Below, piece after piece: positions 1 through 15,267 of a stretch of 15,658 nt of DNA. Origin of the DNA: Patescibacteria group bacterium (lineage in GTDB: Bacteria; Patescibacteriota; Patescibacteriia; UBA2591; UBA6264); NCBI GenBank assembly GCA_028713575.1, contig JAQTOB010000012.1:1-15658 (forward strand). Reading direction: 5' to 3'. Under the pieces are notes generated by a model. It was not told the origin of the DNA and searched no databases. It saw only the letters and a program-made list of their open reading frames with translations. Each line of letters opens with the position of its first letter. The first letter of the stretch is position 1. A program made the translations under genes and the position numbers.

Positions 1-3000
1 TTTAGAATTGTTATTCTTTGGTTTTTGGTTCTTCTTTCCCCTGTTGCTTTTATGGGCAGTGTTTTACCGTCATTTCAGCGTTACGCCAATCAGTGGTGGG
101 AAAAATTTACCAGCCAAGTTATTGTTGGTCCAATTTTGGCGTTTTTTCTTTGGTTGTCATTTTCCATGGTTCAAACTTCGGACAATATATATAAAACGGT
201 TGTTGTTCCCGGGAGCCAAACGGAAGAATATATTGCCGGCGGAATGAGCAACTCGGCGGGTACAGGAACACAACTTTCCGCTGCTATTTCTGAAGCCGGC
301 CGGCCGGAATATATTCTTAATTTTATTATTGGTATTGGCATGCTACTCGGTTCTTTAATGGTTGCTCAACAAATGGGTGTGGCTGGCGGTAAAATGGCCG
401 GACAAGCCCTGGGAAAGATTCAGGCCATGGGTTCAGGTGTGGCCAAATGGCCATTTAAAACTGCGGGCAAAGGGATTAAATCATTAAGCAAATATGCTGT
501 TAAATCAGCAGAAGCTTCAGTGGGCATTCCTTTAACCAAAGAAAGATGGCAACGAATTTTAGCTGACAGAAGAGAGTGGATTGATAAAAAACGAGACGCG
601 AAATTTATTAAACAAAGAGAAAAGGGCATCTTATCTTTTTTACCAAAGGGTGAGGCAGGAGAAAAAGGATGGTCTCATGTTCTTACTTGGAAAGAAGGAG
701 GAAAAGCAATTGGAAGAGTTTTTCAAGGTTTAACAGGGAAGGCTGATAAATTAAGAAAGAAGGCCACGGAAATGGGGAAAAATAAACAAGAAGAAGACGA
801 AACATCAGAACACAAAATCAGGGAAGGAGAAATTTTAAACCAAGATAAACAATATGAAAACAAACTAAATGAACAAAGAGAAAATAAAAATCAATTAGAA
901 ACGAATTCTAATATTTTTACAAAATCAGGGGATAGGATTATGCAATTAGATGATGTTGATAAATATATAGAAAATCTGGAGGCGCAGATAGAAAAAGCAA
1001 GAAGCAAAAATGAAGACGACCCCTGGGTTGGAAAAGCGGAAATATTTTTAGAGGGTCTAAAAAAACAAACAACCTTAGCCAAAAAAGGAAACCAAAAAAC
1101 GATTGATTTAAATACTCTTGGTCCAAATGTTGATAAGAATTTTTATTCGCAGAATATAACGAAATGGTTTAACAAAGAAGTAAAAACAGCAGGTCAGGCA
1201 ATAGAAAAGACAGAACAAGAACAAGAAAATTGGCAAAAAAAGAAAAAAAATTATGAGTTTACTAAAGAGGATTATACAAATGTTAGAAGCGGGATGACAA
1301 ATCTGGAGATGTCTATAACAGAACTTAATTTAGACGAACAAACTAAAAATAAATTCTTAAAAAGAATAAATGATTTACAGGATGAACTGGGGGATGGTAG
1401 CGATGACGCTTTTAATAAATTAAGTCAAGAAAAGAAAAACGAATTGGCGCACAAGGCCTGGACGCTTAAAGATGACTTAGAACAAGAAACAGATAACTTA
1501 AAAAAAGAAGGGAAAATAGATACTGATCAAATAATGGGAATAAAGGATTTTTGCAAAAAAATTCATTCTTCTTTAAGCAAGGAAGTAATTAAAGAGAGTT
1601 TTACCAGAGAAGACCACGAAAAAACTAAAGGCAATATAAAGAATTTGGCCGCTACTATTGAAACACTTGATTTGTCTCCGGAAGCAAAAAATAATTTACA
1701 AAATGAATTAAATGCTCTGCAAAAAGAATTGGAAACACCTTTTGATGAATTAACATTAGGAAAAAGAAACAGAATCGCTAGTCAATTTGAAAAAATTAAA
1801 GACAACTTAAATCAAGAGATGGAAAATAACAAAATAGCTCCCGAAAAAGCGCAAAAAATATCCGATTCTGCTCAAGGAATCCACTCAACTTTAAACAGAA
1901 GAGTGGTTGGTAGGTTTACCAGAGAAGACCACGAAAAAACTAAAGGCAATATAAAGAATTTGGCCGCTACTATTGAAACACTTGATTTGTCTCCGGAAGC
2001 AAAAGGTTATTTCCAAAATGAATTAAATGCTCTGCAAAAAGAATTGGAAACACCTTTTGATAAATTAACACCAGAGAAAAAGAGCAGAATTGCCAATCAA
2101 TTTGAAAAAATTAAAGACAACTTAAATCAAGAGATGGAAAATAACAAAATAGCTCCCGAAAAAGCGCAAGAAATATCCGATTCTGCCCAGGGGGTTCACT
2201 TAATTTTAGAGAAAGAGAAAAAATTAAAAGAAAAGATTGAAAAAAGAAAACAATTAGAACACGAAATAGCGGATTTACAATCTCAAGCAGAAATGATTCA
2301 ACCAAGAACAATGACCGCAGAACAAAGAAGGGTTTTAAATGTAGAAGTTATGAAAGAGTACGAATCAGTTAAGGAAATAGATGATTCCCAGGAATTAATC
2401 ACTCTTTATCGTCAGGCAGAAAAAAAGAAGAATGTTGGTCTGGCAAAGGCTATTTTAATGAAATTAAATTCTCAAAATGATATTAATGAAATTTTAGGGG
2501 AATTTAACCTTGAACAAAATTTTAGGGGAATGGCGGACCTTGGGAAAATAATTCATGATAAATTAGGAATAAGCCAACAAGAGGCCTATATGTTTATAAA
2601 CGATTTATCTTTCAAAAATAAAAACGCCGGTTTATACAGGCTTTCAGCCGCAGTGGGCAGAGATAAAAGAACCGGACTATATCGGCCATTAGACGAAGAA
2701 GAGCATAAAAAAATCGTTTTAATTGAAAGCGGAAAGGCTGAATCGGAAAATTTTTATAGAAAAGCTTCGTGGGCTGCGTTATTTGGCAAAAAGACAGACC
2801 CAAATACAGGAGAAAGAATCCCGATTTTTGATGAAACAACGGAAGCAATGCTTAAAAGAGATATTGATACGATTCATAAAGAATTATTACAAAATTTTCG
2901 ATTAGAAAAAGAAATGCAAAGAAATATGGCTCACAAGAATGTGCTGGATGGAATGAAAAATATGTTATCCGCTATGTATGGAGAAGCAAAAATAAAAATG

Positions 3001-3051
3001 GAGGCGGTGATAAAAGACTTAGAAAGAAAACAAAAACAGTTTTGGTCATAA
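1..3051 (+). CDS. Large membrane protein, 5'-truncated by the window edge. It has a TrbL/VirB6-like polytopic membrane region, then a ~800-aa Lys/Glu/Asn/Gln-rich coiled-coil with internal tandem repeats, then a C-terminal globular region.
   Basis: Frame 1 is open from base 1 (FRIVILWFLVLLSPVAF...), so the TTG at 25 in the ORF track is probably internal and the gene continues upstream. Three hydrophobic helices lie in the first ~125 aa (VLLSPVAFMGSVL; VIVGPILAFFLWLSFSMV; ILNFIIGIGMLLGSLMVAQQMGV). They are followed by a Gly/Ala/Lys-rich tail (AGGKMAGQALGKIQAMGSGVAK), as seen after the last TM of TrbL/VirB6-type proteins. The gene sits upstream of VirB3/VirB4-like genes. That this is a coding region is near certain; the VirB6 assignment rests on motif and synteny recognition only. 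Confidence 0.55.
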   Translation, partial: FRIVILWFLVLLSPVAFMGSVLPSFQRYANQWWEKFTSQVIVGPILAFFLWLSFSMVQTSDNIYKTVVVPGSQTEEYIAGGMSNSAGTGTQLSAAISEAGRPEYILNFIIGIGMLLGSLMVAQQMGVAGGKMAGQALGKIQAMGSGVAKWPFKTAGKGIKSLSKYAVKSAEASVGIPLTKERWQRILADRREWIDKKRDAKFIKQREKGILSFLPKGEAGEKGWSHVLTWKEGGKAIGRVFQGLTGKADKLRKKATEMGKNKQEEDETSEHKIREGEILNQDKQYENKLNEQRENKNQLETNSNIFTKSGDRIMQLDDVDKYIENLEAQIEKARSKNEDDPWVGKAEIFLEGLKKQTTLAKKGNQKTIDLNTLGPNVDKNFYSQNITKWFNKEVKTAGQAIEKTEQEQENWQKKKKNYEFTKEDYTNVRSGMTNLEMSITELNLDEQTKNKFLKRINDLQDELGDGSDDAFNKLSQEKKNELAHKAWTLKDDLEQETDNLKKEGKIDTDQIMGIKDFCKKIHSSLSKEVIKESFTREDHEKTKGNIKNLAATIETLDLSPEAKNNLQNELNALQKELETPFDELTLGKRNRIASQFEKIKDNLNQEMENNKIAPEKAQKISDSAQGIHSTLNRRVVGRFTREDHEKTKGNIKNLAATIETLDLSPEAKGYFQNELNALQKELETPFDKLTPEKKSRIANQFEKIKDNLNQEMENNKIAPEKAQEISDSAQGVHLILEKEKKLKEKIEKRKQLEHEIADLQSQAEMIQPRTMTAEQRRVLNVEVMKEYESVKEIDDSQELITLYRQAEKKKNVGLAKAILMKLNSQNDINEILGEFNLEQNFRGMADLGKIIHDKLGISQQEAYMFINDLSFKNKNAGLYRLSAAVGRDKRTGLYRPLDEEEHKKIVLIESGKAESENFYRKASWAALFGKKTDPNTGERIPIFDETTEAMLKRDIDTIHKELLQNFRLEKEMQRNMAHKNVLDGMKNMLSAMYGEAKIKMEAVIKDLERKQKQFWS
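1258..2229 (+). repeat. In-frame tandem repeat inside the VirB6-like gene. One diverged unit (1258-1599, 114 aa) is followed by two near-identical 315-nt / 105-aa units (1600-1914 and 1915-2229).
   Basis: Each unit starts with FT(K/R)ED(Y/H). Units 2 and 3 both read FTREDHEKTKGNIKNLAATIETLDLSPEAK...NELNALQKELETPFD...QFEKIKDNLNQEMENNKIAPEKAQ.ISDSAQG. The first ~90 nt of units 2 and 3 (from 1600 and 1915) are identical. Close similarity continues to about 1884 and 2199, with scattered substitutions. Unit 1 (FTKEDYTNVRSGMTNLEMSITELNLDEQTKNKFLKRINDLQDEL...) is recognisable only at the protein level. Confidence 0.9.
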
Positions 3052-3066
3052 TAAAATATTTTAAAT

Positions 3067-4989
3067 ATGTTGGAAAAGGAAAAATTAAATTTTCTTATTG
3101 AAGAAACGAGAGAAAAAATAAAACAAGAAATTGCTGAAGGATTTTTTTATCATTCTGATAAGATGAAAAAGTGGTATCAAACTAGAAAAGAATTAGGGGA
3201 GTTTTTAAAAAAAGGGGGCGACTTAAAAGAAACTAATCCTTTGGTTTATGACCAATGTTTAGATTTATTAAATAAAATTAAATGGTTTTCTTTTGTTCAT
3301 CTGAAGTCAGAAGATTTTATTGATTTATTCAGACAGGGCTTAAAATATGCCTTAATGAGCAAAGATTATCCCTTAGAAAAAAATTTAAGCATGTTTTTAA
3401 TTGACATTCCTATTCTTTCTGTCAGGGATGAATATAAAGGGAAAATACGCGAAGCAATGTTTGCTAATCAAGAAAAATTAACTTCCAAGAAAATTGTTAT
3501 GGGAAATAAAGAAAAAGACCCAACCATAAGTAATTGGTTAAAATTTTATGACACAGAGTTAGGGGCGGGAAATGTGGAAAAATTAAAAACATTAGAAATT
3601 TTATTTAACAATAAAAATGTTATCAAATTGTCAACCGAAGAAAAGCAAGTAATCAAACGTTTGATTGACCTTTATGAGGAATTAAAAATATCCGCTATAA
3701 CCGTAGAAGGATTGGAAGAAGAAGATTATGTTATAGATGAAAATGGAGAAATAGAATATCATAAAAGAAGTTATGTGGAAAAAATCAGTCAAGGATTTGC
3801 TAAAACAAAAAAACAAAAAGCATTAAAATTAGAAAAAGAAATGATTCAGGAAAAGATAAAGGCGGAAAAAATTAAAGAAGAAGCGAATTTAATTGATATA
3901 AATCAAGCAATCGGAGAAGTAATTAAAAGAACTAATTTAACATTCCCCCAAGAGGACCTTGAAAAAAGATTTAAAAATATTATTTTGTCTTTTTTAAAAG
4001 ATGTCCGCACGGGCATTGAAACAAAAATTACCCTTAAAAGAGAAACGCAAATTGGCGGCATGGGATTTGACCAAGAAACAACTGATAAAATAATGGATAT
4101 TTTAAAAAATGTTAAGCCTAAAATTGACCAAAAGTTTTTAAAAGAAGAATTGTTATCAAATGGGGTTTTAAAATCAGAATTATCAACAAAAATGTCGTTT
4201 CCCGCTGGTCAATTAGATAAAATTATTCAAACAGAAACAAGGCAGACATTAAACGTTGAACCAATAAGCAAAAAAAAAGAGACAATTGCGTCTAAACAGG
4301 AGCAAGTTTTTAAAACAAAATCAAAGTCACCTTTTGTTCCTCCGCCAATTATTAAACAAACGCCCTCCGCGCCTGTTTTATCAGAGCAAAAGACAATACC
4401 TTCTCTTCAAGCATCAATTTCAACCTCCACAGTTAAACAAGAGCCGGTCATCCAAATTCAAGAATCAACAATTAAAAAAGAAGTCAAGCCAAAGCTGGAA
4501 GAAAAACAAAAAACAGAAACACAAATTTCTTTATCTAAAGACATTGTTTCGCCGTCGCAAAATATTTCCCAGACAAAAACAGAAGAACCCGTTAAAATAG
4601 AAATACCCGTTCGTCGGCCAATTGAATTGCACAAACCCGTGGTTGAAGAAATAAAAGTCAAACCTAAAACATACAGCCCCATTGATGAACTAAGGACAAT
4701 CACTTTAATTGATTGGCGTCGCTGGGGAACCCCGAAAGAAGCAGCCAAAATGGTTCAAAATAAAATAAATTTATTAGCCGAAGAATCTTTAGTTAAAAAA
4801 GCCGAAGGAATTAAGGCCTGGAAGAGTTCAGAAATTAATCAATTATATTTAAATATTGGGGCAGAATCAATTGACCAAGGAAAGTCGGTAAATGAAATAA
4901 TTATCCAAAGACAGCAACAAAATAAGCCAACCCTGAACGAAGAAGAGTTTAATGTTGTGGTGGAATTGAACCAGAAACTGCGCTTCTAA
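3067..4989 (+). CDS. Hypothetical 640-aa protein with no predicted TM segment or signal peptide. It has an N-terminal globular region, a Lys/Glu-rich helical region, a Pro/Ser/Thr/Gln/Lys-rich low-complexity spacer and a compact C-terminal domain.
   Basis: Long ORF starting 15 nt after the preceding stop, on the same strand as the T4SS-like genes. The low-complexity spacer spans roughly nt 4260-4690 (SPFVPPPIIKQTPSAPVLSEQKTIPSLQASISTSTVKQEPVIQIQ...). The C-terminal ~100 aa reads LIDWRRWGTPKEAAKMVQNKINLLAEESLVKKAEGIKAWKSSEINQLYLNIG.... I do not recognise a family. Confidence 0.7.
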   Translation: MLEKEKLNFLIEETREKIKQEIAEGFFYHSDKMKKWYQTRKELGEFLKKGGDLKETNPLVYDQCLDLLNKIKWFSFVHLKSEDFIDLFRQGLKYALMSKDYPLEKNLSMFLIDIPILSVRDEYKGKIREAMFANQEKLTSKKIVMGNKEKDPTISNWLKFYDTELGAGNVEKLKTLEILFNNKNVIKLSTEEKQVIKRLIDLYEELKISAITVEGLEEEDYVIDENGEIEYHKRSYVEKISQGFAKTKKQKALKLEKEMIQEKIKAEKIKEEANLIDINQAIGEVIKRTNLTFPQEDLEKRFKNIILSFLKDVRTGIETKITLKRETQIGGMGFDQETTDKIMDILKNVKPKIDQKFLKEELLSNGVLKSELSTKMSFPAGQLDKIIQTETRQTLNVEPISKKKETIASKQEQVFKTKSKSPFVPPPIIKQTPSAPVLSEQKTIPSLQASISTSTVKQEPVIQIQESTIKKEVKPKLEEKQKTETQISLSKDIVSPSQNISQTKTEEPVKIEIPVRRPIELHKPVVEEIKVKPKTYSPIDELRTITLIDWRRWGTPKEAAKMVQNKINLLAEESLVKKAEGIKAWKSSEINQLYLNIGAESIDQGKSVNEIIIQRQQQNKPTLNEEEFNVVVELNQKLRF

Positions 4990-5074
4990 AAATAGGCAAT
5001 TAGGTGCCTTGGTAATCATGATTTAATATACATTCCCAATGGTTATTTAATTAACAAATCCCCAATTAACCAAT

Positions 5075-5518
5075 ATGCAATTTGTTGTCCCCCAATTTAT
5101 TGATATAGAAAGTAAAATTATCGGGCCAATCACGCCTCGTCAATTTATTATTCTTTTTATTACAGCGGGAGCAATTATTTTATGTTATAAATTAGCCGAT
5201 TTTGCCCTTTTCATCATTGAGGCGATAATTATTCTTGGTTTGGGCGTGGCTTTGGCCTTTGCAAAGATTAACAATCAACCAATTTATTATTTTCTTTTGA
5301 ATATCATCAATGTTGCCAGAAAACCAAATTTAAGAATTTGGCGCCGGGAAGTTATTCAAGTGGTAGAAAAAGACATTAAGGAAAAAACAAAAATCAAGGA
5401 AACAACTAAGGTTCGTCAACCGCTTTCATTTTCTAATTTTTCCAAAGTTGCTCTTTTAGTTGATACGGGGGGGAAATATAAAGAAGAATTGACGGAAAAT
5501 GAAGATTTCAAAATATAG
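5075..5518 (+). CDS. PrgI-family / VirB3-like small T4SS membrane protein
   Basis: The N-terminus MQFVVPQFIDIESKIIGPITPRQFIILFITAGAIILCY, followed by a second hydrophobic helix (ALFIIEAIIILGLGVALAF), matches the PrgI-family pattern: (V)P..I...(D/E)KI.GPLT.RQF followed by two TM helices. It lies immediately upstream of the VirB4-like genes, which is the usual VirB3-VirB4 order. Confidence 0.75.
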   Translation: MQFVVPQFIDIESKIIGPITPRQFIILFITAGAIILCYKLADFALFIIEAIIILGLGVALAFAKINNQPIYYFLLNIINVARKPNLRIWRREVIQVVEKDIKEKTKIKETTKVRQPLSFSNFSKVALLVDTGGKYKEELTENEDFKI

Positions 5519-5559
5519 AATCTGCAAAAAGTTTTAATATCAAAATATAATAATAATTT

Positions 5560-6213
5560 ATGGCAATACCTTCAACACAGAGATATTTAGACATTTCGGA
5601 AATCAAAAATGATTGCGTGGTTTTAAAAAACGGAAGTCTATGTGCCGTTTTATTGGCTTCTTCCATAAATTTTGCCCTTAAATCAGAAGACGAACAAAAC
5701 GCAATTATCCAAAATTATATTCGGTTTTTAAATAGTTTAGAATACACAATCCAAATTGTTATTCAGTCCCGGCCGTTTAATATTAAGCCCTATATTTCTC
5801 AATTAGAAGAATTAAGAAAAGTTCAAAGGAACGAGCTTTTAAAAGTTCAAATGGCTGATTATTCTGATTTTATTAAAGAGTTGGTTCAATTGGGAGAAAT
5901 AATGACCAGGCGTTTTTACATTGTTGTTCCTTACAATCCTTTGGGGGACAAAAAAAGAAGTTTTTTTTCCCGATTTAAAGACATTTTTAGCACAGTTAAA
6001 TTAATTAAAATAAAACAAGAAAAATTTGAAAAATATAGGGAAGAGCTTTTTTCAAGAGTTGATAATGTCATTTCAGGGTTGAATAGCTTGGGGCTTACAG
6101 TTGTTCCTTTAGACACGCAAAGCTTAATAGAGATTTTTTATAATATTTATAATCCGACTGAGGCAGAGATTCAACCAATGGGAGAATTAAAGGATTTAAT
6201 GGTGGAAAAATAA
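5560..6213 (+). CDS. 217-aa protein resembling the N-terminal (non-ATPase) domain of Gram-positive-type VirB4 conjugation ATPases. It has no Walker motifs.
   Basis: STQRYLDISEIKNDCVVLKNGSLCAVLLASSINFALKSEDEQNAIIQNYIRFLNSLEYTIQIVIQSR follows the pattern I recall from the N-termini of Tn916 Orf16 / TcpF-type VirB4 proteins (..Q..IP.....DGI......Y.KT..F.DINY.L...ED...IF..W..FLN.FD..I..QL). Its stop codon is 1 nt from the start of the VirB4 ATPase gene. Confidence 0.55.
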   Translation: MAIPSTQRYLDISEIKNDCVVLKNGSLCAVLLASSINFALKSEDEQNAIIQNYIRFLNSLEYTIQIVIQSRPFNIKPYISQLEELRKVQRNELLKVQMADYSDFIKELVQLGEIMTRRFYIVVPYNPLGDKKRSFFSRFKDIFSTVKLIKIKQEKFEKYREELFSRVDNVISGLNSLGLTVVPLDTQSLIEIFYNIYNPTEAEIQPMGELKDLMVEK

Positions 6214-6214
6214 T

Positions 6215-8095
6215 ATGGCGATAAAACCTTCGGCTCTCAATGAGTCAAAAATTGAAAAAGAAAAAATAAAAACCACCCCTCTTAAAGAAGATAAATCAAA
6301 AGAAATTGTTGAAACAGAGGAATTTTATCGAAAAGGAACAGTCACAGTTTTAGATTTAATCGCTCCTTCGGCCTTAAGGGTTGCCCCTCAATATCTTCAA
6401 TTGGGCGATCGGTATTTAAGAACGATTTTTATTTCCACTTTTCCCCGGTATGTTTCTGTGGGATGGTTTGTTCCAATAATAAATTTTAATGCTCATTTGG
6501 ATGTAGCCATGTTTTTTTATCCGGTCCAAACTAAAATAATTTTGAAACAATTACAAAAACAGGTTGGTAATTTAGAGGCTGAATTATCTGCGGAACAAGA
6601 AAAAGGAATGCCTCGCGACCCTCTTAAAGAAACTGCTTTAAGAGACGTTGAAAGACTAAGAGATGATTTAACTACTGGGGTTGAACATTTTTTTCAATTT
6701 GCCCTTTATACTACCATATACGCCAAAAACGAAAAAGAACTTGATACATTAACGGAAAAAATAGAAAGTTTATTTGCCGCCAAACTGGTCAAAACAAGGA
6801 GGTCTTTTTATCAATCTGAACAGGGTTTTAATTCTACTCTGCCTTTAGCTCAGGATGAATTAATGGTGACAATGAATATAAATTCCTCTCCTTGTGCTTC
6901 AAGTTTTCCTTTTATTTCTTCTGACCTAACTTCAAATAACGGAGTTCTTTACGGCATAAATCGGCACAATAATAGCCTGGTTCTTTTTGACCGTTTTTCC
7001 ATGCCTAACGCTAATTTTATTGTTTTTGCCACTTCTGGGTCGGGAAAGAGTTATTTTTGTAAGCTTGAAGTTTTACGTTCTTTAATGTTGGGAACGGACG
7101 TTATTGTCATTGACCCAGAAAAAGAATATAAACATCTTTCTGACGCTGTAGGGGGAACATATATTAATATTTCTTTGGCCTCGGATAGTAAAATCAATCC
7201 TTTTGATTTGCCGCAAACTGCGGCCAAAGATGTTAAAACTACGGATATTATTCGTTCAGGAGTGATTGCCATTAAGGGACTGTTAAAAATTATGATTGGT
7301 CGGAACTTAGAGGGAGGAACAAAGGGATTTACGCCCCAAGAAGACTCTTTAATGGACCGGGCATTATTAGAAACATATGCCAAAAAAGACATTGTCCCCG
7401 GATGTGACTTAACTAGAGTAGACCCGCCAACGATGAGCGACCTTCAGGAAGTTCTTAGTGGCATGGAAGGAGGAGGAGATTTGGTTGAAAGATTAAAAAA
7501 ATATACGGAAGGCACATTTTCCGGATTTTTGAACAATTCAACCAATGTTAAGATGAATAATCAATTAGTGGTTTTTTCCGTTCGCGACTTAGAAGATGAG
7601 TTAAGGCCCATGGCCATTTATACCATTGTTAACTACATTTGGAATGTAGTGCGTTCGGAATTAAAAAAAAGGATTTTGCTTATTGATGAGGCCTGGTGGT
7701 TAATGCAACATGAAGATTCCGCCAAATTCATCTTTGCTCTGGTCAAACGTTGCCGAAAATATTATTTAGGCGTTACCACTATTACCCAAGACGTTAACGA
7801 TTTTTTGCTGTCACCTTACGGTCGGGCAATTGTTACTAACTCGGCGATGCAGTTGCTTTTAAAACAATCTCCGGCAGCAATTAATTCCGTGACCAAAACT
7901 TTTATTCTCACTGAAGGAGAAAAATATTTACTTTTGGAATGTGGCATAGGAGAAGGCATATTTTTCGCCGGCTCTAAACATGTGGCTATTAAAGTGGTTG
8001 CTTCTTATTCAGAAGACCAATTAATAACTTCTGACCCCAAGCAACTATTGGAAATAGAAGAATCAAAAAAAGAGTTTTCCCAAAATTTAGAATAA
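6215..8095 (+). CDS. virB4: VirB4-family type IV secretion / conjugation ATPase (TrsE/PrgJ/TcpF-like)
   Basis: The Walker A motif is FATSGSGKSY (GSGKS at nt 7037-7051). The Walker B motif is RILLIDEAWWL (nt ~7673-7705). The N-terminal VirB4-type domain reads LGDRYLRTIFISTFPRYVSVGWFVPIINFNAHLDVAMFFYPVQ. The C-terminal motifs RKYYLGVTTITQDVNDF and NSAMQLLLKQ are typical of VirB4/TraC-like ATPases. Confidence 0.9.
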   Translation: MAIKPSALNESKIEKEKIKTTPLKEDKSKEIVETEEFYRKGTVTVLDLIAPSALRVAPQYLQLGDRYLRTIFISTFPRYVSVGWFVPIINFNAHLDVAMFFYPVQTKIILKQLQKQVGNLEAELSAEQEKGMPRDPLKETALRDVERLRDDLTTGVEHFFQFALYTTIYAKNEKELDTLTEKIESLFAAKLVKTRRSFYQSEQGFNSTLPLAQDELMVTMNINSSPCASSFPFISSDLTSNNGVLYGINRHNNSLVLFDRFSMPNANFIVFATSGSGKSYFCKLEVLRSLMLGTDVIVIDPEKEYKHLSDAVGGTYINISLASDSKINPFDLPQTAAKDVKTTDIIRSGVIAIKGLLKIMIGRNLEGGTKGFTPQEDSLMDRALLETYAKKDIVPGCDLTRVDPPTMSDLQEVLSGMEGGGDLVERLKKYTEGTFSGFLNNSTNVKMNNQLVVFSVRDLEDELRPMAIYTIVNYIWNVVRSELKKRILLIDEAWWLMQHEDSAKFIFALVKRCRKYYLGVTTITQDVNDFLLSPYGRAIVTNSAMQLLLKQSPAAINSVTKTFILTEGEKYLLLECGIGEGIFFAGSKHVAIKVVASYSEDQLITSDPKQLLEIEESKKEFSQNLE

Positions 8096-8108
8096 TAAAA
8101 ATATTTTT

Positions 8109-8651
8109 ATGATTAAAAAAAATAAGATACTTATTATCGTTATTGTTCTTATCTTAGTTTTTATTCTTGCTTTTTTTCTTTTATCACAAAAGAAGAGGGT
8201 TAATCAAATGAGTTCATTCCCCGAAAAAACAGAACAAGAAAAAATGGAAGAATTTGAAGGAAAAACCCAAACGACAGAAGACCCGATTATTGCCCTAAAA
8301 GCAAAATTAACTCTTCAGGCTCGTTTTTTCATAGAGCGTTATGGGAGTTATTCTTCAGATAGCAATTACAACAATCGTCGGGCTATGGAAGACCAGATGA
8401 CCGAAAAATTATTTACCAGGGTTATTGAAGAAATAAATTTAAAAGAATTAACAAACGAATTTTATTCTTTAGAGACAAAGGTGATTAATGTTGAATTAAA
8501 AGAGTTTGGCGAAAAAAAAGTCGTTTTTAATGCTCAGATTCAGGAAAAAGAGATAAAATCAGGACAAATAACGACCCTGCCAAAACAAACAGAATTAATT
8601 TTTATCAAGGAAAGCGAGGATTGGAAAATAGATGAAATAAATATATTTTAA
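8109..8651 (+). CDS. Bitopic membrane protein with an N-terminal TM anchor and a ~140-aa extracytoplasmic domain. It may be a VirB8/PrgL-like (NTF2-like) T4SS component.
   Basis: The TM segment is ILIIVIVLILVFILAFFLLS. The soluble domain has an alpha-then-beta pattern (ARFFIERYGSYSS...VINVELKEFGEKKVVFNAQIQEKEI...ELIFIKESEDWKIDEINIF), ending in a W.I strand typical of NTF2-like folds. It sits directly after virB4. The VirB8-like call rests only on architecture and position. Confidence 0.35.
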   Translation: MIKKNKILIIVIVLILVFILAFFLLSQKKRVNQMSSFPEKTEQEKMEEFEGKTQTTEDPIIALKAKLTLQARFFIERYGSYSSDSNYNNRRAMEDQMTEKLFTRVIEEINLKELTNEFYSLETKVINVELKEFGEKKVVFNAQIQEKEIKSGQITTLPKQTELIFIKESEDWKIDEINIF

Positions 8652-8660
8652 TTCAGTTTT

Positions 8661-9374
8661 ATGGTTGAAGAAGAACAGAGGAATCAAGCCGACATAGAGC
8701 AGGAAAGAAAAAGGGCGCTTTATCAAGAACAAAGAAAAAATGCAGGCAAAAAGGAAGCAAAAACGAAAAAGGGACCCAAAAAACAAAGTTCTTTAAACCA
8801 AGAATCTTTGATTAACAGGCCGGAGAAAAAAAATAGTAAAACTGCGCCAAATGACGAGGAAAACGAGGAAGAGCAAGCAAGAGAACTGAGAAAAAAACAA
8901 GCAACAGAACGGTTAGAAAAATCTCAAGCATTGCTTAACAAAGATAAATCAGAGGGAGGCGGAAAAAGAAAAGCCATTAAAGACGCCATGTCGGCCATTA
9001 AAGAACAGGGTTCTGAAGAAGTTTTTAAACAAGCCTCCGGTTTTATTCATAATATTCTTTGGGGATCTCTTTTTACACCAAGCTTTCTCTTTAGTTTGGC
9101 GGGATTAAATATTTATTTTTTAGCTTCAGCAGGTCTTTTTGATAGTTTTATTCCTGAATTGTCTAAAAAAATATCTCCATTTGGACTTCTTATAAAATTG
9201 TTAGGTCGATTTGGCGGGATGATTTTAGGAACGCTTGTTTTGGGCCTTTTGGATTTAATCCTTCTTGCTTTGTTATTATTTATTTTTTTAATTATTTATT
9301 GGTTTATCCATCCCGGAGAATTGATTAAATTTTTGCCGGCTTGGGAAAAATTTGAAAATTTATTTAATTTATAA
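8661..9374 (+). CDS. Hypothetical membrane protein with a ~130-aa highly charged Lys/Glu-rich N-terminal region and a C-terminal cluster of hydrophobic helices
   Basis: The ORF starts 9 nt after the previous stop. The N-terminus reads EEEQRNQADIEQERKRALYQEQRKNAGKKEAKTKKGPKKQ.... The C-terminal hydrophobic segments are ILWGSLFTPSFLFSLAGLNIYFLASAGLF and GGMILGTLVLGLLDLILLALLLFIFLIIYWFI. I do not recognise a family. Confidence 0.6.
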   Translation: MVEEEQRNQADIEQERKRALYQEQRKNAGKKEAKTKKGPKKQSSLNQESLINRPEKKNSKTAPNDEENEEEQARELRKKQATERLEKSQALLNKDKSEGGGKRKAIKDAMSAIKEQGSEEVFKQASGFIHNILWGSLFTPSFLFSLAGLNIYFLASAGLFDSFIPELSKKISPFGLLIKLLGRFGGMILGTLVLGLLDLILLALLLFIFLIIYWFIHPGELIKFLPAWEKFENLFNL

Positions 9375-9384
9375 ATTTTGATTT

Positions 9385-10203
9385 ATGATAAAGAAAAGAT
9401 TATTAATTTTTATTTTAATTGTTTTGTTTTTTATAAATATTAAGTTTACAGAAGCCGCTGTCTATGAAACAGGGTCTTCTGTAGAATTCACTCCCCAGGT
9501 AAGTATTGGGACGGAAATAGAGGCTGGTAAATCAATGGAAATTAGCGGAACGAGCATTGCTAAATATGTCGTTGCTATTTATAACTGGGCTTTGTCTGTT
9601 ATTGTTATTTTGGCCATTGTAATGATTATGGTAGCTGGGGTTCGTTGGATGATGGCTGCCGGCAATGCCTCAATTGTGGGACAAGCCAGGGACCAGATAA
9701 TATCTTCCTTAATAGGATTATTGATTGCCATTGGTTCTTACGCCCTGCTTAATTTTATTAATCCCGCCTTGGTGAGAATGAGGGAAATAGATCCCGGGGG
9801 GATAAAGAATATTAATATTGAGTTCAGAAAATGTGCTGATAATGAAGCATGTGTTTATGATGGTAAAATGAATGATAATTACGATTGTGTCTGTAAGCCA
9901 ACAACGAGAATCTACTTCAATCCGGGGGCGGGTGCAATAGGTCAAGGACTTAGAAAAATTTTAGGATTTAAGACCACAAAAGTAACCACTACTTTTAAGT
10001 CCGACAAGGAGTGCGGTCAGATTGGGTTTTGTGATGGTTGCGGGGGAGTTACAATGGGCGTTAAATGTCTTTATGGCGGTGATTGCGTAGTCAATGATTC
10101 TTTTTACACAGAGGATAATCCTTTAGATGTAAGCGCCATAACCCGAGAGAGTTTTTATAATCCTTCAGCTGCGTATTGCGCTGACCCATCTTTGACCCGT
10201 TAA
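9385..10203 (+). CDS. Secreted T4SS pilin-like protein (VirB2/TrbC-like two-helix hairpin of the type common in CPR genomes) fused to a Cys-rich C-terminal domain
   Basis: The signal peptide MIKKRLLIFILIVLFFINIKFTEA/AVYE is followed by two hydrophobic helices flanking a short polar loop: YNWALSVIVILAIVMIMVAGVRWMMAAGNASIVGQARDQIISSLIGLLIAIGSYALLNFINP. This is the VirB2/T4SS_pilin signature. The last ~125 aa (nt 9832-10200) contain 10 cysteines, whereas the first 149 aa contain none. Confidence 0.7.
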   Translation: MIKKRLLIFILIVLFFINIKFTEAAVYETGSSVEFTPQVSIGTEIEAGKSMEISGTSIAKYVVAIYNWALSVIVILAIVMIMVAGVRWMMAAGNASIVGQARDQIISSLIGLLIAIGSYALLNFINPALVRMREIDPGGIKNINIEFRKCADNEACVYDGKMNDNYDCVCKPTTRIYFNPGAGAIGQGLRKILGFKTTKVTTTFKSDKECGQIGFCDGCGGVTMGVKCLYGGDCVVNDSFYTEDNPLDVSAITRESFYNPSAAYCADPSLTR

Positions 10204-10205
10204 TG

Positions 10206-10241
10206 TGATTGGGCCTGGGGTCTTGATTGGGCCTGGGGTCT
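10206..10241. repeat. Perfect tandem duplication of the GC-rich 18-mer TGATTGGGCCTGGGGTCT. It runs into the palindrome GGGGTC-T-GACCCC (10235-10247).
   Basis: I read this directly: 10206-10223 is identical to 10224-10241. It starts 3 nt after the pilin stop codon, and its G+C content is far above the surrounding AT-rich intergenic DNA. It may act as a terminator or a protein-binding site. Confidence 0.85.
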
Positions 10242-10358: not shown

Positions 10359-11645
10359 ATGTCGGAAAAAACAAAAAAAATATTAATTATTATTTTATTT
10401 ATAATTATTGTTATTGGATTGGCCTTGCTTTTATATTTTGTTCTATTTAAAGAAGCGGCACCAGTTGAGACGGTGATTGAGCCAGAAGAAGAAGAAGTCG
10501 TTCCTCGTTTGCCCACAACCAGAGAATCCTGGGAAAGTATGACCATTTCTGAAAGAATTCAGTATGGTTTACCGGCACTTGAATGGCCATCAGAAGAAAT
10601 TGAAGAGATTGTTGAGCCAATTTCAATAATTGTGCCTGAAATTGACGACGTGGCAGATGGAGGGAGGACCTGGGTTACACCGATTTCTGATGACCCGGTA
10701 AAAGGAGCAACATTATCCGCCGATGGCGAGAAAAGTATTTATTATAATTCTGAAACAGGACAATTTTTTTCTACTGATAATTTTAGCAATAAAGAGTTAT
10801 TGACCGAACAAATTTTTTATAATGTTGAAAAAATAAACTGGGCGCCGACAAAAAATAAGGCAATTATTGAATATCCTGACGGATTTAAGATAATCTATGA
10901 TTTTGACACCGAAACACAATATACTTTGCCAAAAAATTGGGAGGAATTTGACTGGAATTTTTCCGGCAGCCAAATAGCCTTTAAGTCGCTTAGTAATTAT
11001 CCGGAGAATAGCTGGTTGGCAATTGCTCAGGCTGACGGTAGCCAGCCCAAACCCATAGAGCACATGGGAGAAAATGCGGACAAGGTGGTGGTTTCTTGGT
11101 CTCCAAACAATCAAGTCGTTGCCTTTTCTTCTACGGGCGAGGCCAGGGGCGTTTGGGAACAAGAAATACTTTTAATTGGACAACATCAAGAGAACAATAA
11201 ATCATTAATTGTTGACGGTCGCGGTTTTGAACCAAAATGGTCGCCCAAGGGGGATAAAATTATTTATAGTATTTACTCTTCTGAGACAAATTATCGGCCC
11301 CAGCTTTATTTAGTAGATGCTCAGGGTAATCAAATCGGACAGAATAAAAAATCATTAAAATTAACCACTTGGGCTCATAAATGTACTTTTAATAAAGACG
11401 CGACCACTATTTATTGCGCCGTCCCTAAGAATTTGCCAGAAGGCGCGGGTTTAGTTTTAGAATTAGCAGAAGATTCTCGCGATGATTTTTACAAAATAGA
11501 TGTGGCAACTGGCATGGTTTCTTTTTTGGCCGAAGACGCCACTGGCGGTTATGATGTGGAAAATGTTTATTTGTCCGAAGACGAAGATTATCTCTATTTT
11601 GTTGATAAAAATACGGAACGGTTGAGATTTATTCAGCTTAAGTAA
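10359..11645 (+). CDS. Membrane-anchored TolB-like / PD40 beta-propeller repeat protein
   Basis: The N-terminal TM segment is ILIIILFIIIVIGLALLLYFVLF. PD40-like repeat signatures recur: INWAPTKNKAIIEY, FSGSQIAFKS, VSWSPNNQVVAFSS, PKWSPKGDKIIYSI. Confidence 0.65.
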   Translation: MSEKTKKILIIILFIIIVIGLALLLYFVLFKEAAPVETVIEPEEEEVVPRLPTTRESWESMTISERIQYGLPALEWPSEEIEEIVEPISIIVPEIDDVADGGRTWVTPISDDPVKGATLSADGEKSIYYNSETGQFFSTDNFSNKELLTEQIFYNVEKINWAPTKNKAIIEYPDGFKIIYDFDTETQYTLPKNWEEFDWNFSGSQIAFKSLSNYPENSWLAIAQADGSQPKPIEHMGENADKVVVSWSPNNQVVAFSSTGEARGVWEQEILLIGQHQENNKSLIVDGRGFEPKWSPKGDKIIYSIYSSETNYRPQLYLVDAQGNQIGQNKKSLKLTTWAHKCTFNKDATTIYCAVPKNLPEGAGLVLELAEDSRDDFYKIDVATGMVSFLAEDATGGYDVENVYLSEDEDYLYFVDKNTERLRFIQLK

Positions 11646-11770: not shown

Positions 11771-13078
11771 ATGTCTATTTTTGTTTGTTCAAAATGTGAT
11801 GCTCAATTTCCCAAATGGCTTGGTCAATGTTCGCAATGCGGAGCATGGGGAACAATTATGGAAAAGGGGGAAGAATCAACAGAAATAAAGAATTTTAACA
11901 ATCAAGTTATAGATTTTAATCAGATCAATCAAGAAAAGTTTTTTAAAATAAAAACAGGTTTAAATGAAGTTGATAGGGTTTTGGGGGGCGGAATTGTTTT
12001 TGAGTCATTAATTTTGTTGGGGGGACAGCCGGGGATTGGCAAATCAACATTAGTTTTACAAATTGCAGATAAATCGGCCAATCATCCGGTTTTTTATGTA
12101 AGCGGGGAGGAGTCGGCTCAACAAGTGAAGACGAGAATGGATAGACTCAACATTTCTTCTAATAATTGGAAATTTCTTGGCGAGTCGGACATTAATGTAA
12201 TAATTGCCAGCTTAAAAAGATTTAAGCCCAAGGTTATAATTATAGATTCAATTCAAACTATGGTTTTTCCCGAAATTGCCTCTGAAGCCGGAAATATTAA
12301 TCAAGTGAGAGCCTGTACGTCAAAATTAAGAGAAATAGCCCAAGAATTAAAAGCAGTAGTTTTTATTATTGGTCACGTTACTAAGGAGGGGGTAATGGCC
12401 GGGCCAAAAACGCTTGAACATTTGGTTGACATTGTTTTGTATTTAGAAGGAGACCCCAGTCATCGTTTTCGCTTTCTTCGCGCAGGAAAAAATAGATTTG
12501 GGTCAACAAACGAAGTTGGGGTTTTTGATATGGGTCAGACAGGTTTAATGGAAGTAGTTAATCCTTCGGAGATTTTTTTAGCTAACCGAAACGCGGAAAT
12601 TAGCGGGTCTGTGGTTGTGCCAGTAGTGGAAGGAAGTCGTTCTTTTTTGGTTGAAGTTCAGGCTTTAGTTTCTCGGACTTCTTTTGGTTATCCACAAAGA
12701 AAATCAACAGGTTTTGATTTAAATAGATTGGGGCTTTTAATTGCCGTTTTAATTAAGCGTTGTAATTTTAATTTAGCTAATCAGGATATTCATATAAACA
12801 TTGTTGGTGGTTTGCAGGTTCGTGAGCCAGCCGTTGATTTAGGCGTTGGACTAGCCATTGCTTCCGCCTTTAAAAATAGTCCGATTAATCCGGAAATTGC
12901 TGTTTTTGGAGAAGTTGGTTTAGGAGGAGAAATTAGAGGCGTTAAAGCTACAGAAAAAAGAATTAAAGAAGCTTTTAAATTGGGATTTAAAAAAATTATT
13001 TCTCCGGTTGGAGATTTTGCGGAAACAAAAATCATTCAAGTTAAAAATTTGAATGAAGCTATAGCTCAACTTTGTTGA
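11771..13078 (+). CDS. radA: DNA repair protein RadA/Sms
   Basis: The N-terminal zinc finger is CSKCDAQFPKWLGQCSQCGAWGT (C-x2-C-x10-C-x2-C). The Walker A motif is GGQPGIGKST. The RadA-specific motif KNRFGSTNEVGVFDM is present. The C-terminal Lon-protease-like domain reads INIVGGLQVREPAVDLGVGLAIASAF...EVGLGGEIRGV. Confidence 0.95.
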   Translation: MSIFVCSKCDAQFPKWLGQCSQCGAWGTIMEKGEESTEIKNFNNQVIDFNQINQEKFFKIKTGLNEVDRVLGGGIVFESLILLGGQPGIGKSTLVLQIADKSANHPVFYVSGEESAQQVKTRMDRLNISSNNWKFLGESDINVIIASLKRFKPKVIIIDSIQTMVFPEIASEAGNINQVRACTSKLREIAQELKAVVFIIGHVTKEGVMAGPKTLEHLVDIVLYLEGDPSHRFRFLRAGKNRFGSTNEVGVFDMGQTGLMEVVNPSEIFLANRNAEISGSVVVPVVEGSRSFLVEVQALVSRTSFGYPQRKSTGFDLNRLGLLIAVLIKRCNFNLANQDIHINIVGGLQVREPAVDLGVGLAIASAFKNSPINPEIAVFGEVGLGGEIRGVKATEKRIKEAFKLGFKKIISPVGDFAETKIIQVKNLNEAIAQLC

Positions 13079-13182: not shown

Positions 13183-15267
13183 TTATTCCAGATGAGTTGT
13201 TCGGATAGACTCATTTATTTTTTTTATCAAAAGAGGATAATTTTTAAAATCAGAAGCATTTTTGAATAAGTTTTTAGCAGTTTCGCGCGTTTCTTTAATA
13301 ATTTGTATATCAGAGAGTTTGGCAATTTTTAGGTCATTGGAGAACCCTGATTGTTCCGTGCCAAAAATTTCTCCCGGTCCACGAAGTTCTAAGTCTTTTT
13401 CCGCCAACTCAAAACCATTTTTTGCCTGAATTAAAAATTGAAGTCTTTTTTTTGTTTTTTCTGCTTGAGCAGATAGGTCTCCTTCATTTTCTAAGAATAG
13501 AAAACAATATGACTGGAAGGAACTTCTGCCGATGCGTCCGCGTAGTTGATAAAGTTGAGCCAGCCCGAAACGTTCCGCTCCTTCAATTATCATAATTGAG
13601 GCGTTGGGAACGTCAATTCCCACTTCAACTACGGTGGTGGAAATTAAAATATTAATTTTATTTTCTGAAAAATCTTTCATGATTTTTTCTTTTTGTTCTG
13701 ATTTTAGCCTGCCGTGTAATAAGCCGATTTTAAGGTCGGGGAAAATTTCTTCAGATATTTTTTTATATTCTTCTTTTACTGATTTAACTCCCAGTTTATC
13801 AGAAGGGTCAATTAGTGGGCAAGTGATAAAAGCTTGTCGGCCATTTTTTATTTCCAGTTTAGTAAATTTATAAATGTTTTTTATCTCTTTTGGTTTGATA
13901 ATTTTTGTAATAATTGGTTTTCTTCCCGGCGGAATTTGAGAAATGATAGAAATATCCAAATCTCCATAAAGCGTTAAAGCCACGGAACGAGGAATGGGGG
14001 TGGCCGTCATAGAAAGAAAATGAGGAGAATGGTTAGACGATTGTCTTGTTAATAAAGCGCGTTGATTTACGCCAAAACGATGTTGTTCGTCGGTAATTGC
14101 TAAAACTAAATTTTTAAATTTGGTTTTTTCTTGAATTAATGAGTGCGTGCCAATAATAAAATTTATTTCTCCAACAGAGAGCATTTTCAGTAATTTTTGT
14201 TTTGTCGTTTCCTCTTTATTTGTTTTAATTTTTCCTCTGGTTAAAAGCGCGATTTTAAATGGATATTTTTTAAATAATTTAGAGATGTTCTTAAAATGTT
14301 GTTCAGCCAAGATTTCCGTGGGGGCCATATAAGCGACTTGGTGGCCGGCCAGCAGAACATTAAGAATAGCAATAGCGGCAACAATGGTTTTTCCACTGCC
14401 CACATCGCCTTCTAAAAGGCGATTCATTGGCGTTTCTTTTTCTAAATCTTTTACAATTTCCCACGTCGCTTTTCTTTGCGAATCGGTTAATTTAAACGGA
14501 AGAGACTGAATGAAACTTTTTATTTTATCAGTTTTAAGGTTAATTTTTATTGCTTTCTGGCTTTTTATTTTTTGTTTGATTAATTGATTTCTCATTTGAA
14601 TTAAGAACAATTCGTTAAATTTTAGGCGGCGAGATGCTTTTTCTAACCATTTTTTATTTTGAGGAAAATGGATTTGTTCCAAAGCAAAAGAAAGACTAAT
14701 TAATTCATATTTTGTCCGAATTTCTCTCGGCAACCAATCTTCCGCTTCCTGGGCCAATGGCAAGATTTGACGGACAAGAAAGCGAATTTGTTTTTGAGAT
14801 AGACGCGTTGTACTGGAATAGACGGGGACTAATCGTCCGGTATGAAGAGGACTTTGACGATAAATTTCATAAGAAGGATTGGTTAACTGGAGGCCATAAT
14901 ATTCGTCATGACTGATTTTTCCTGCCAAATATACTTCTTGGCCGGGTTTTAATATTTTGGCTAAAAATGACTGATTGAACCAAATTATTTTTAAAGAATC
15001 GGTTTGGTCAGAAACAATGGCTTCGGTGATGATAATTTTTTTTCTTGGAGAACGATGATTGGCAATCAAGTTTATTTTTGCTTTAATCGTTCCCGATTTT
15101 TTGCTTTTTAAGTCCTTTATCTTAAAAATTTCACTATAATCGTCATAGCGAAAAGGATAATGAAATAACAAATCGCCGGCGGTTTTAATCCCCAGTTTTT
15201 CCATTTGACGGGCGATTGATTTTCCCACTTTGGTTAGTTCAGTAATTGGCGTTTTTATGGTTATCAT
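13183..15267 (-). CDS. recG: ATP-dependent DNA helicase RecG
   Basis: An N-terminal wedge/OB region is followed by superfamily-2 helicase motifs: GDVGSGKT (motif I), DEQHRFGV (motif II), SMTATPIPRS (motif III) and QLRGRIGR (motif VI). The length (694 aa) and the C-terminal LRGPGEIFGTEQSG motif are typical of RecG. Confidence 0.95.
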   Translation of the reverse strand: MITIKTPITELTKVGKSIARQMEKLGIKTAGDLLFHYPFRYDDYSEIFKIKDLKSKKSGTIKAKINLIANHRSPRKKIIITEAIVSDQTDSLKIIWFNQSFLAKILKPGQEVYLAGKISHDEYYGLQLTNPSYEIYRQSPLHTGRLVPVYSSTTRLSQKQIRFLVRQILPLAQEAEDWLPREIRTKYELISLSFALEQIHFPQNKKWLEKASRRLKFNELFLIQMRNQLIKQKIKSQKAIKINLKTDKIKSFIQSLPFKLTDSQRKATWEIVKDLEKETPMNRLLEGDVGSGKTIVAAIAILNVLLAGHQVAYMAPTEILAEQHFKNISKLFKKYPFKIALLTRGKIKTNKEETTKQKLLKMLSVGEINFIIGTHSLIQEKTKFKNLVLAITDEQHRFGVNQRALLTRQSSNHSPHFLSMTATPIPRSVALTLYGDLDISIISQIPPGRKPIITKIIKPKEIKNIYKFTKLEIKNGRQAFITCPLIDPSDKLGVKSVKEEYKKISEEIFPDLKIGLLHGRLKSEQKEKIMKDFSENKINILISTTVVEVGIDVPNASIMIIEGAERFGLAQLYQLRGRIGRSSFQSYCFLFLENEGDLSAQAEKTKKRLQFLIQAKNGFELAEKDLELRGPGEIFGTEQSGFSNDLKIAKLSDIQIIKETRETAKNLFKNASDFKNYPLLIKKINESIRTTHLE

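Follow-up and report, generated by a model that had tools for sequence, protein, structure and literature searches.

A type IV secretion locus of ABY1 Patescibacteria, probably resident and non-conjugative

A 15,658-bp contig from a metagenome-assembled genome of a Patescibacteria group bacterium (NCBI; locus tags PHG59_03110 onward), analyzed here in its entirety and referred to below as the window, carries a block of genes encoding a type IV secretion system (T4SS) of a kind that several recent accounts have described in these bacteria. Transposon sequencing of Southlakia epibionticum, a member of the Saccharibacteria, showed that its T4SS gene cluster is essential for epibiotic growth (Wang 2023, PMC10633639). 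This system resembles the conjugative systems of Gram-positive bacteria, its pilins are essential, and it has no recognizable coupling or relaxase proteins (PMC10633639). A survey of 3,035 genomes detected VirB4 in 2,417 of them, mostly as members of one monophyletic clade nested in the mating-pair formation class FATA, or MPF-FATA (Quinonero-Coronel 2025, PMC12102498). In these genomes TrsD, PrgI/VirB3, VirB6 and VirB2-like pilins are encoded near virB4, relaxases are almost absent, and the type IV coupling protein (T4CP) is usually encoded far off. The T4SS loci of the ABY1 lineage adjoin comF, recG and radA, and VirB8 homologues occur mostly in ABY1 (PMC12102498). As to function, a 2025 review (PMC12857230) and a 2024 perspective (PMC11665869) consider the delivery of effectors, or the uptake of DNA or other host molecules, by way of a pilus-like conduit.

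The block in the window is, in our estimation, very probably a resident, vertically inherited and non-conjugative T4SS of ABY1 Patescibacteria, which is built around a VirB4 of the Patescibacteria clade and descends from monoderm MPF-FATA machinery. The conserved gene order, the chromosomal flanks, the absence of mobile-element genes and the identity of VirB4 together point to a vertically inherited chromosomal system and not to a plasmid or an integrative and conjugative element (ICE). This type of locus and its reading as a machine for host interaction or uptake have already been published between 2023 and 2025 (PMC10633639, PMC12102498, PMC12857230). The present analysis adds the assignment of ORF6 as a VirB8-like subunit, the size and conservation of the family to which ORF2 belongs, a giant neighbor with a carbohydrate-binding (CBM) domain and a Cys-rich extension of the pilin, of which we found no mention in the published accounts, their supplementary tables being covered in part.

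The VirB4 motor and its chromosomal setting

The block consists of eight closely packed open reading frames (ORFs) on the forward strand, ORF1 to ORF8 (Table 1), separated by 15, 85, 41, 1, 13, 9 and 10 nt. The two gaps that follow are larger than those within the block, at 155 nt between ORF8 and ORF9 and 125 nt between ORF9 and radA. An earlier description of this DNA, made without database searches and called here the sequence-only reading, had placed eight co-directional genes with gaps of 1-85 nt in a stripped-down operon ending at position 10203. The recomputed boundaries and gaps agree with it, whereas the extent has to be widened, ORF9 and a giant gene upstream being part of the conserved neighborhood.

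At the center of the block lies a VirB4 motor that is divided between two genes. ORF5 carries the ATPase. Its alignment to the NCBIfam model conju_CD1110 spans positions 167-734 of the 752 in the profile and scores 341.9 bits, where the curated cutoff is 325. P-loop_TraG is matched as well (2.9e-28), and ORF5 keeps both Walker A (ATSGSGKS) and Walker B (ILLIDEAW) intact. Its similarity to CedB is weak (5.4e-12, 45.1 bits against a cutoff of 700) and does not make it a CedB member by score. ORF4 corresponds to a free-standing N-domain: it matches NCBIfam TrsD/TraD at 4.9e-10 with 39.6 bits, a homology-level score that lies under the NCBIfam cutoff of 200, and it covers positions 108-263 of VirB4_plasma (3.6e-10) and positions 5-105 of CD1110 (NCBIfam). 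Against Pfam TraC_F_IV it falls slightly under the cutoff (26.9 versus 28.1 bits); its orthologues are annotated as PF26593 TraC-like. ORF5 begins 1 nt past ORF4, the pair tiles one full-length VirB4, and the split is kept in every related locus. Across ABY1 loci VirB4 is 66-84% identical, which fits strong purifying selection and vertical descent. No other T4SS-type ATPase is encoded in the window, where the remaining P-loop proteins are RadA and RecG, and Pfam and NCBIfam domain searches detected no relaxase, T4CP, VirB11, hydrolase or integrase domain in any window ORF.

The DNA upstream of base 1 is cut off by the contig end, and a 99.47%-identical strain (locus L008) and six more relatives were used in its place. 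Altogether eight distinct related loci, reached through homologues of ORF1, ORF2 and ORF6, were compared, besides a shorter copy of the window (L001), and their flanks were examined over 10 kb. Homologues of ORF1 carry the names Patescibacteria, Magasanikbacteria, Buchananbacteria, Jacksonbacteria and Kerfeldbacteria, the last four of which we take to be ABY1 lineages in GTDB. In all eight related loci, including contigs of 315 kb and 517 kb, the genes follow the order VirB6-like, ORF2-like, PrgI, TrsD, VirB4 and VirB8-like, and where a locus reaches further downstream an ORF7-like gene comes next, followed by one or more pilin genes. The genes radA and recG, both identified by domain matches, lie directly downstream in the window and in L002, L006, L008 and L010; adjacency to radA is missing in L013, which has a DsbA gene and a second pilin gene there, and in L004, which has toxin-antitoxin genes. 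On the upstream side ksgA is found beyond the giant gene in L006 (on the 315-kb contig). Over these 10 kb none of the eight related loci has a gene for a relaxase, a coupling ATPase, VirB11, an integrase or a peptidoglycan hydrolase. The GC content of the window ranges from 0.27 to 0.39, and the composition does not shift from the secretion block to radA and recG.

These results largely uphold the sequence-only reading, which had noted that the block abuts radA and recG and that a relaxase, a coupling ATPase, VirB11, a hydrolase and an integrase are missing from the window, and which had favored a resident machine for host interaction or uptake over a conjugative element. Conserved order, core-gene flanks and uniform composition speak for such a machine. 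The suggestion that the locus is of the type found in Patescibacteria, or the candidate phyla radiation, is borne out by the origin of the contig in an NCBI Patescibacteria genome and by homologues from Patescibacteria lineages. It had further proposed a comparison of gene order, which gave the same order in every related locus examined, and an inspection of the upstream DNA for mobile-element genes, which in the 10 kb of the relatives gave a giant surface-protein gene and ksgA and no relaxase, T4CP or integrase.

Platform, pilin and probable accessory proteins

The remaining components fall around this motor. The frame of ORF1 is open from base 1. Compared with its 1229-aa orthologue in L008, it covers residues 214-1229 and lacks the first 213. 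The part that lies in the window comprises the last three hydrophobic segments and then a hydrophilic, coiled-coil or helical extension of ~890 aa. This fragment matches CD3337/EF1877, a VirB6-like family of Firmicutes, at a weak E of 0.009 (NCBIfam). Among full-length homologues 11 of 38 match TrbL at E<0.01 (best 5.8e-6), and further homologues are annotated as PF04610 TrbL or PF19590 TrbL_3. A profile of the VirB6 N-terminal region had no match among PDB sequences. Within the extension, a tandem duplication at 1600..2186 (315-bp unit, 1.9 copies, 94% matches) is visible in the translation as two 105-aa repeats in the coiled-coil region. The extension is probably cytoplasmic, as suggested by the weak charge evidence of a K/R-rich stretch right after the last transmembrane (TM) segment. 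A match of ORF1 to bDLD2 (Pfam, E 0.012) was treated as noise.

Two smaller proteins complete the predicted platform. ORF3 scores 29.1 bits against Pfam PrgI, for which the gathering score is 27, and its orthologues are 42-63% identical. ORF6 has a TM helix at residues 7-25, a disordered linker and an NTF2-like domain. Its AlphaFold2 model has a mean predicted local distance difference test score of 77, rising above 90 in the domain, and places helices at 59-112 and four long strands at 119-179, so that three helices are packed onto a four-stranded sheet. The top Foldseek matches in the PDB are CagV (6iqt, E 2.2e-5), Rickettsia VirB8 (4o3v), TcpC (3ub1) and PrgL (7aed), followed by TraH (5aiw), an IcmL-like protein and R388 VirB8 (8rtd_Y). 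These matches to VirB8-family folds have E values of 2e-5 to 1e-3 and target-based TM-scores of 0.6-0.69. NTF2-like folds outside this family (Tim44, the CaMKII hub, ARC6) score about as well, and neither Pfam nor NCBIfam gives a VirB8 or PrgL match at E<=0.1; the VirB8 call therefore stands on predicted fold, topology and position jointly. ORF6 is accordingly a predicted VirB8-like subunit, in agreement with the concentration of VirB8 homologues in ABY1 (PMC12102498).

The pilin ORF8 scores 26.9 bits against Pfam T4SS_pilin, a marginal value on its own (cutoff 26.6), and all six orthologues match the same family, the best at 1.2e-7. A signal peptide and two TM helices are followed by a C-terminal domain that is ~150 aa long, contains 10 Cys and, in alignments, differs in sequence between orthologues. 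Judged from the sequence, this Cys-rich domain past the second TM helix is probably extracytoplasmic. Three nucleotides past the ORF8 stop, at 10206-10241, the otherwise AT-rich spacer holds a perfect, GC-rich 18-bp direct repeat in two copies (TGATTGGGCCTGGGGTCT), and its predicted folding is no better than that of shuffled sequences (z -0.26).

The next gene, ORF9, encodes a membrane-anchored propeller, and its counterpart directly follows the pilin gene in L002, L006, L008, L010 and L013. In L013 (Kerfeldbacteria) it begins 6 nt past the pilin gene, and a DsbA-like gene and a second pilin gene come after it in place of radA; the propeller thus travels with the T4SS cluster and not with radA, and ORF9 is probably an accessory of the cluster. 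The DsbA/thioredoxin-like gene lies at L013:21884-22507 (78.7 bits) and the second pilin-like gene at L013:22509-23645. A DsbA-like gene in the Kerfeldbacteria cluster fits the formation of disulfides in Cys-rich pilin domains.

Another conserved neighbor lies on the other side of the block. Upstream sequence is available for seven loci, and in every one of them a giant ORF (2,141-3,808 aa) stands directly upstream of the VirB6-like gene; in L008 it overlaps the VirB6-like start codon. The giant proteins are orthologous (29-57% identity over >1,000 residues). They carry a signal peptide at the N-terminus, contain a carbohydrate-binding domain of the CBM_4_9 family (48 bits) and share the motif V[KR]DNWGWC, which is conserved in the C-terminal part. 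By homology, such a gene probably lies upstream of the window's own block, beyond the contig end.

ORF2 has a predicted structure of helical domains at about 10-210, 270-360 and 538-640, with a disordered linker rich in P, S, T and K at 362-537. It contains no TM segment, signal peptide or Walker A/P-loop, and from the missing TM segment and signal peptide it is probably cytoplasmic. It has no match in Pfam or NCBIfam, a sequence-profile search of the PDB returned only noise, and Foldseek gave a best E of 0.79 in the PDB and no match in BFVD; a Pfam match to HEPN_AbiA (E 0.058) was treated as noise. A profile of 15 orthologues nevertheless recovered 3,396 cluster representatives at E<=1e-3, of which 1,210 at E<=1e-30, and a member of this family is found inside the cluster, between the VirB6-like and PrgI genes, in every locus examined. 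In two more distant ABY1 loci (L012 and L014) the equivalent of ORF2 is formed by two genes, an N-part of ~445 aa and a C-part of ~400 aa, between which metK is located, together with a GIY-YIG ORF in L014. In L008 (4960-6881) the gene is called as two ORFs of 153 and 471 aa, either by an assembly error or by a strain-specific disruption, and it is intact in the window and in L001. The names recorded for members of these clusters were almost all blank. A scan of genome contigs for ORF2 homologues yielded ten loci on GTDB-representative contigs (L015-L024), of which L019 is titled Patescibacteria. The other nine bear the title 'uncultured Gammaproteobacteria bacterium', which resembles a placeholder, is probably a mislabel and is unfit for taxonomy. 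L016 and L011 are one and the same contig (GCA_964499385.1), on which PrgI and TraC-like genes are present too.

ORF7 combines a K/E-rich N-terminal half, probably disordered, with about three TM segments toward the C-terminus; Pfam and NCBIfam give no family assignment. A weak CD3337/EF1877 match (E 0.006) had raised the idea of a second VirB6 fragment, which was rejected with an hhalign probability of 9.6%; a cryptic pilin was likewise rejected (0.6%), the profile being shallow in both comparisons.

Most of the component names given in the sequence-only reading have held. Its PrgI/VirB3-like protein, its VirB4 N-domain-like protein and VirB4 ATPase, and its VirB2-like pilin correspond to ORF3, ORF4, ORF5 and ORF8, and the profile searches it proposed placed PrgI, T4SS_pilin and VirB4 above their cutoffs and reached TrbL through homologues of ORF1. 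Its VirB6/TrbL-like protein is supported at family level by full-length homologues (TrbL, TrbL_3), while the fragment in the window gives the weak match described above. Of the three proteins it could not place, the 237-aa protein is a membrane protein that still has no family match, and the 640-aa protein is as unplaceable as it appeared, with the reservation that the label lineage-specific sits badly with its very large family. The 180-aa protein can now be placed as VirB8-like by its predicted fold, through the matches to CagV, VirB8 and PrgL.

Beyond the block, GC skew is positive in all 1-kb windows except one, the cumulative skew climbs almost monotonically, and 10 of the 11 large genes of the window are on the forward strand, as would fit a leading-strand segment without an internal origin or terminus. 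Rfam and tRNA scans of the window gave no match. In L004, L012 and L014, GIY-YIG ORFs and HEPN/nucleotidyltransferase pairs are dispersed in and around the T4SS clusters.

Table 1. Features of the window and of related loci (coordinates without a locus prefix refer to the window)
Feature	Position	Strand	Basis or remark
ORF1, extended VirB6/TrbL-like polytopic membrane protein	1..3051	+	5'-truncated by contig end; TrbL in homologues
ORF2, 640 aa, conserved T4SS-associated protein	3067..4989	+	Position between VirB6-like and PrgI genes
ORF3, PrgI/VirB3-like small membrane protein, two TM segments	5075..5518	+	Pfam PrgI
ORF4, TrsD-like free-standing VirB4 N-domain	5560..6213	+	NCBIfam TrsD/TraD
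ORF5, VirB4 ATPase, MPF-FATA/CD1110 type	6215..8095	+	NCBIfam conju_CD1110
ORF6, predicted VirB8-like bitopic protein, 180 aa	8109..8651	+	Predicted fold, topology, position
ORF7, 237 aa, conserved membrane protein	8661..9374	+	Orthologues in L002, L004, L006, L010
ORF8, VirB2-like pilin	9385..10203	+	Pfam T4SS_pilin
ORF9, TolB/PD40-like beta-propeller, N-terminal TM anchor	10359..11645	+	TolB propeller 2.6e-10, PD40
radA	11771..13078	+	Zn-ribbon, KaiC/AAA_25 and ChlI/Lon_C domains; housekeeping neighbor, not a T4SS part
recG	13183..15267	-	RecG_wedge 1.1e-26, DEAD, Helicase_C, RecG_dom3_C; housekeeping neighbor
Small GIY-YIG nuclease ORF	15419-15658		63.9 bits; cut by contig end
Split ORF2 genes	L012:13157-14500 and 15957-17162		
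Split ORF2 genes	L014:13436-14770 and 17177-18349		
Giant gene	L008:1-1255		C-terminal end of 2684-aa gene
Giant gene	L006:1721-9922		
Giant gene	L010:1-7165		
Giant gene	L004:1-9896		
Giant gene	L012:1-9200		
Giant gene	L014:1-9786		
Giant gene	L013:3352-9777		

Possible host exchange and competing explanations

In model systems, VirB4 together with VirB3, VirB6 and VirB8 forms the platform that extracts VirB2 from the membrane and polymerizes it, and pilus biogenesis needs no coupling protein. The same parts could operate in the window: VirB4 would pull the pilin out of the membrane and polymerize it on the VirB3/6/8 platform, and the product would be a short fibre or channel at the site where the host cell is contacted. 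The variable Cys-rich domain of the pilin, the giant CBM protein and the propeller, the last two of which appear to be surface modules, would engage the host envelope, and the assembly would then serve as a conduit for the host exchange on which growth of the epibiont depends. Since genes for a relaxase and a coupling ATPase are missing from the window, and from the 10 kb around the block in relatives, DNA export of the classical conjugative kind is unlikely.

Several points weigh against the reading of the block as a resident T4SS of this kind. The VirB6 identity of ORF1 is supported at the level of the family, through homologues and not through the fragment in the window; membership of ORF5 in the Patescibacteria VirB4 clade is suggested by best hits and context; and the formation of a pilus is deduced from the fact that a pilin is encoded. 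Conserved synteny is what probably ties ORF9 and the giant protein to the cluster, a weaker bond than co-function in small genomes that rearrange slowly. Evidence of essentiality comes from one Saccharibacteria species, and its cluster is different, with an array of pilins, a lysozyme and two genes of the VirB6-like type. A T4CP or a relaxase may be encoded farther off in this genome; most Patescibacteria genomes have T4CP homologues elsewhere (PMC12102498). Finally, scans for promoters and terminators of the window performed at chance (54 promoters found versus 50.4 expected, 12 terminators versus 12.1), and the operon boundaries are therefore not set by them.

As to what passes through the machine, one tentative possibility is that it imports DNA or nucleotides from the host or the environment, in the manner of ComB or Ced, and that single-stranded DNA is handed to the adjacent RadA and RecG. 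The position of radA and recG immediately downstream, in the window and in the four relatives named above, suggests such a hand-over, and import has been proposed from the presence of comF, recG and radA beside ABY1 loci (PMC12102498) as well as in PMC11665869; both genes are nevertheless housekeeping genes, recG is on the opposite strand, and the linkage to radA is not universal, L013 and L004 being the exceptions. The lack of relaxase and T4CP genes, both in the window and over 10 kb on the flanks of relatives, would suit import, as would the weak similarity of VirB4 to CedB, far under the cutoff as it is, and Patescibacteria lack de novo nucleotide synthesis (PMC10633639), but no DNA-binding receptor or nuclease was recognized in the cluster. 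Loss of comEC in Southlakia ends competence and not viability (PMC12857230), which implies that what makes the T4SS essential does not depend on natural transformation through ComEC.

The evidence agrees just as well with the opposite direction, in which protein effectors are exported into or onto the host, and the same reserve applies to it. The VirB6 extension and ORF2 would then stand in for a clustered coupling protein as receptors of the substrate. A T4SS usually works in this direction; Wang 2023 suggested protein export from the missing coupling and relaxase proteins (PMC10633639), and PMC11665869 notes the speculation. Large conserved parts without a signal peptide, namely ORF2 and the ORF1 extension with its K/R-rich beginning, would be suited to a role of this type, though the location of the extension follows from charge and ORF2 has no fold match that points to a chaperone or adaptor. 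T4CP homologues encoded elsewhere in most Patescibacteria genomes (PMC12102498) could contribute, whereas the window yielded no candidate effector, no secretion signal and no immunity pair.

A broader proposal, which we regard as unlikely, makes the T4SS one module of a larger ABY1 apparatus for docking to the host. The giant CBM protein, the Cys-rich pilin and the propeller would attach to the host envelope and breach it. On the cytoplasmic side the coupling protein would give way to the VirB6 extension and the widespread ORF2 family, and the host macromolecules taken up would feed processing that depends on RadA and RecG. The published accounts consulted do not describe such an apparatus.

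An ordinary conjugative plasmid or ICE, of which the block would be one piece and whose relaxase, coupling protein and integrase would lie just past the contig end, is highly improbable and largely refuted. The contig does break inside ORF1, VirB4 is nearest to a conjugative family model (CD1110), and the surroundings of related loci contain scattered small genes of the GIY-YIG and toxin-antitoxin kinds; but L008 and six relatives carry the giant gene upstream (followed by ksgA in L006) with no relaxase, T4CP or integrase within 10 kb, radA and recG follow downstream in DNA of uniform composition, and a relaxase is found near only 15 of 2,474 Patescibacteria virB4 genes (PMC12102498). Least probable of all is that the cluster has lost its function and is decaying, as what remains of an ancient conjugative element, which might be imagined from the missing VirB1, VirB11 and T4CP, the split VirB4 and the interrupted ORF2 of L008 (153 + 471 aa), since the eight ORFs are intact in the window and L001, the VirB4 motifs are intact with 66-84% identity across orders, the TrsD/VirB4 split is a conserved family trait (PMC12102498), a reduced genome keeps >10 kb for the cluster, and the homologous Southlakia cluster is essential (PMC10633639).

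Comparison with described systems

The role of the T4SS in Patescibacteria has been called 'completely unknown' (PMC11665869), although the T4SS is essential in the single species that was tested, and the radiation is very large and uncultivated. An uncultivated ABY1 example does not make the published puzzles more testable. The VirB8-like subunit, the ORF2 family, the giant CBM neighbor (present in seven of seven loci) and the variable Cys-rich pilin do offer concrete starting points for studying, by structural and genetic means, the way in which ultrasmall episymbionts draw on their hosts.

Among more distant systems, the extended VirB6 proteins of Rickettsiales share with ORF1 a polytopic core and a very large hydrophilic extension (PMC12857230). 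They belong to an unrelated lineage with diderm MPF-T systems, and no sequence similarity was detected between the extensions. ComB of H. pylori and Ced of Sulfolobales are alike in being based on VirB4 and in having neither T4CP nor relaxase, and ComB also has VirB2-, VirB3-, VirB4-, VirB6- and VirB8-like parts. ComB is, however, a diderm system with VirB7, VirB9 and VirB10, and the ATPase of the window is not a CedB member (45 bits versus 700).

The MPF-FATA systems of Firmicutes (Prg/Pcf of pCF10, Trs of pGO1/pSK41, CD1110 of C. difficile CTn2) come closer. They share VirB4, TrsD, PrgI and probably a VirB6 analogue with the window, and a VirB8-like fold of the PrgL/TcpC/TraH type. In contrast to them, the window has no relaxase, T4CP (PcfC/TcpA), hydrolase of the PrgK/TrsG type or adhesin of the PrgB type, its context is core chromosomal, and it encodes a VirB2-like pilin, which the Gram-positive systems lack (PMC12102498).

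The cluster of Southlakia epibionticum ML1 (SEML1_0006-0019) is likewise of the monoderm type, with PrgI, VirB4, an NTF2-like protein and VirB2-like pilins, with VirB6-like proteins of ~1000 aa that have helical C-terminal extensions, and without a recognizable relaxase or coupling protein. It differs in detail: in Southlakia there are two VirB6-like genes, six small pilins in tandem and a gene for a lysozyme/peptidase, whereas the window has one pilin with a Cys-rich domain, one VirB6-like gene and no hydrolase, and has ORF2, ORF7 and the propeller in addition.

The closest counterpart is the ABY1 arrangement of PMC12102498. The text of that account makes no mention of the giant CBM protein, the ORF2 family, the propeller or the Cys-rich pilin extension, and the locus of the window was not seen beside dnaA/dnaN. 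Between the two there is no difference in kind: both have a VirB4 of MPF-FATA affinity and a separate TrsD, with PrgI, VirB6 (a probable one in the window) and a pilin near virB4, and both are chromosomal, have no relaxase or nearby T4CP and lie in the neighborhood of recG and radA.

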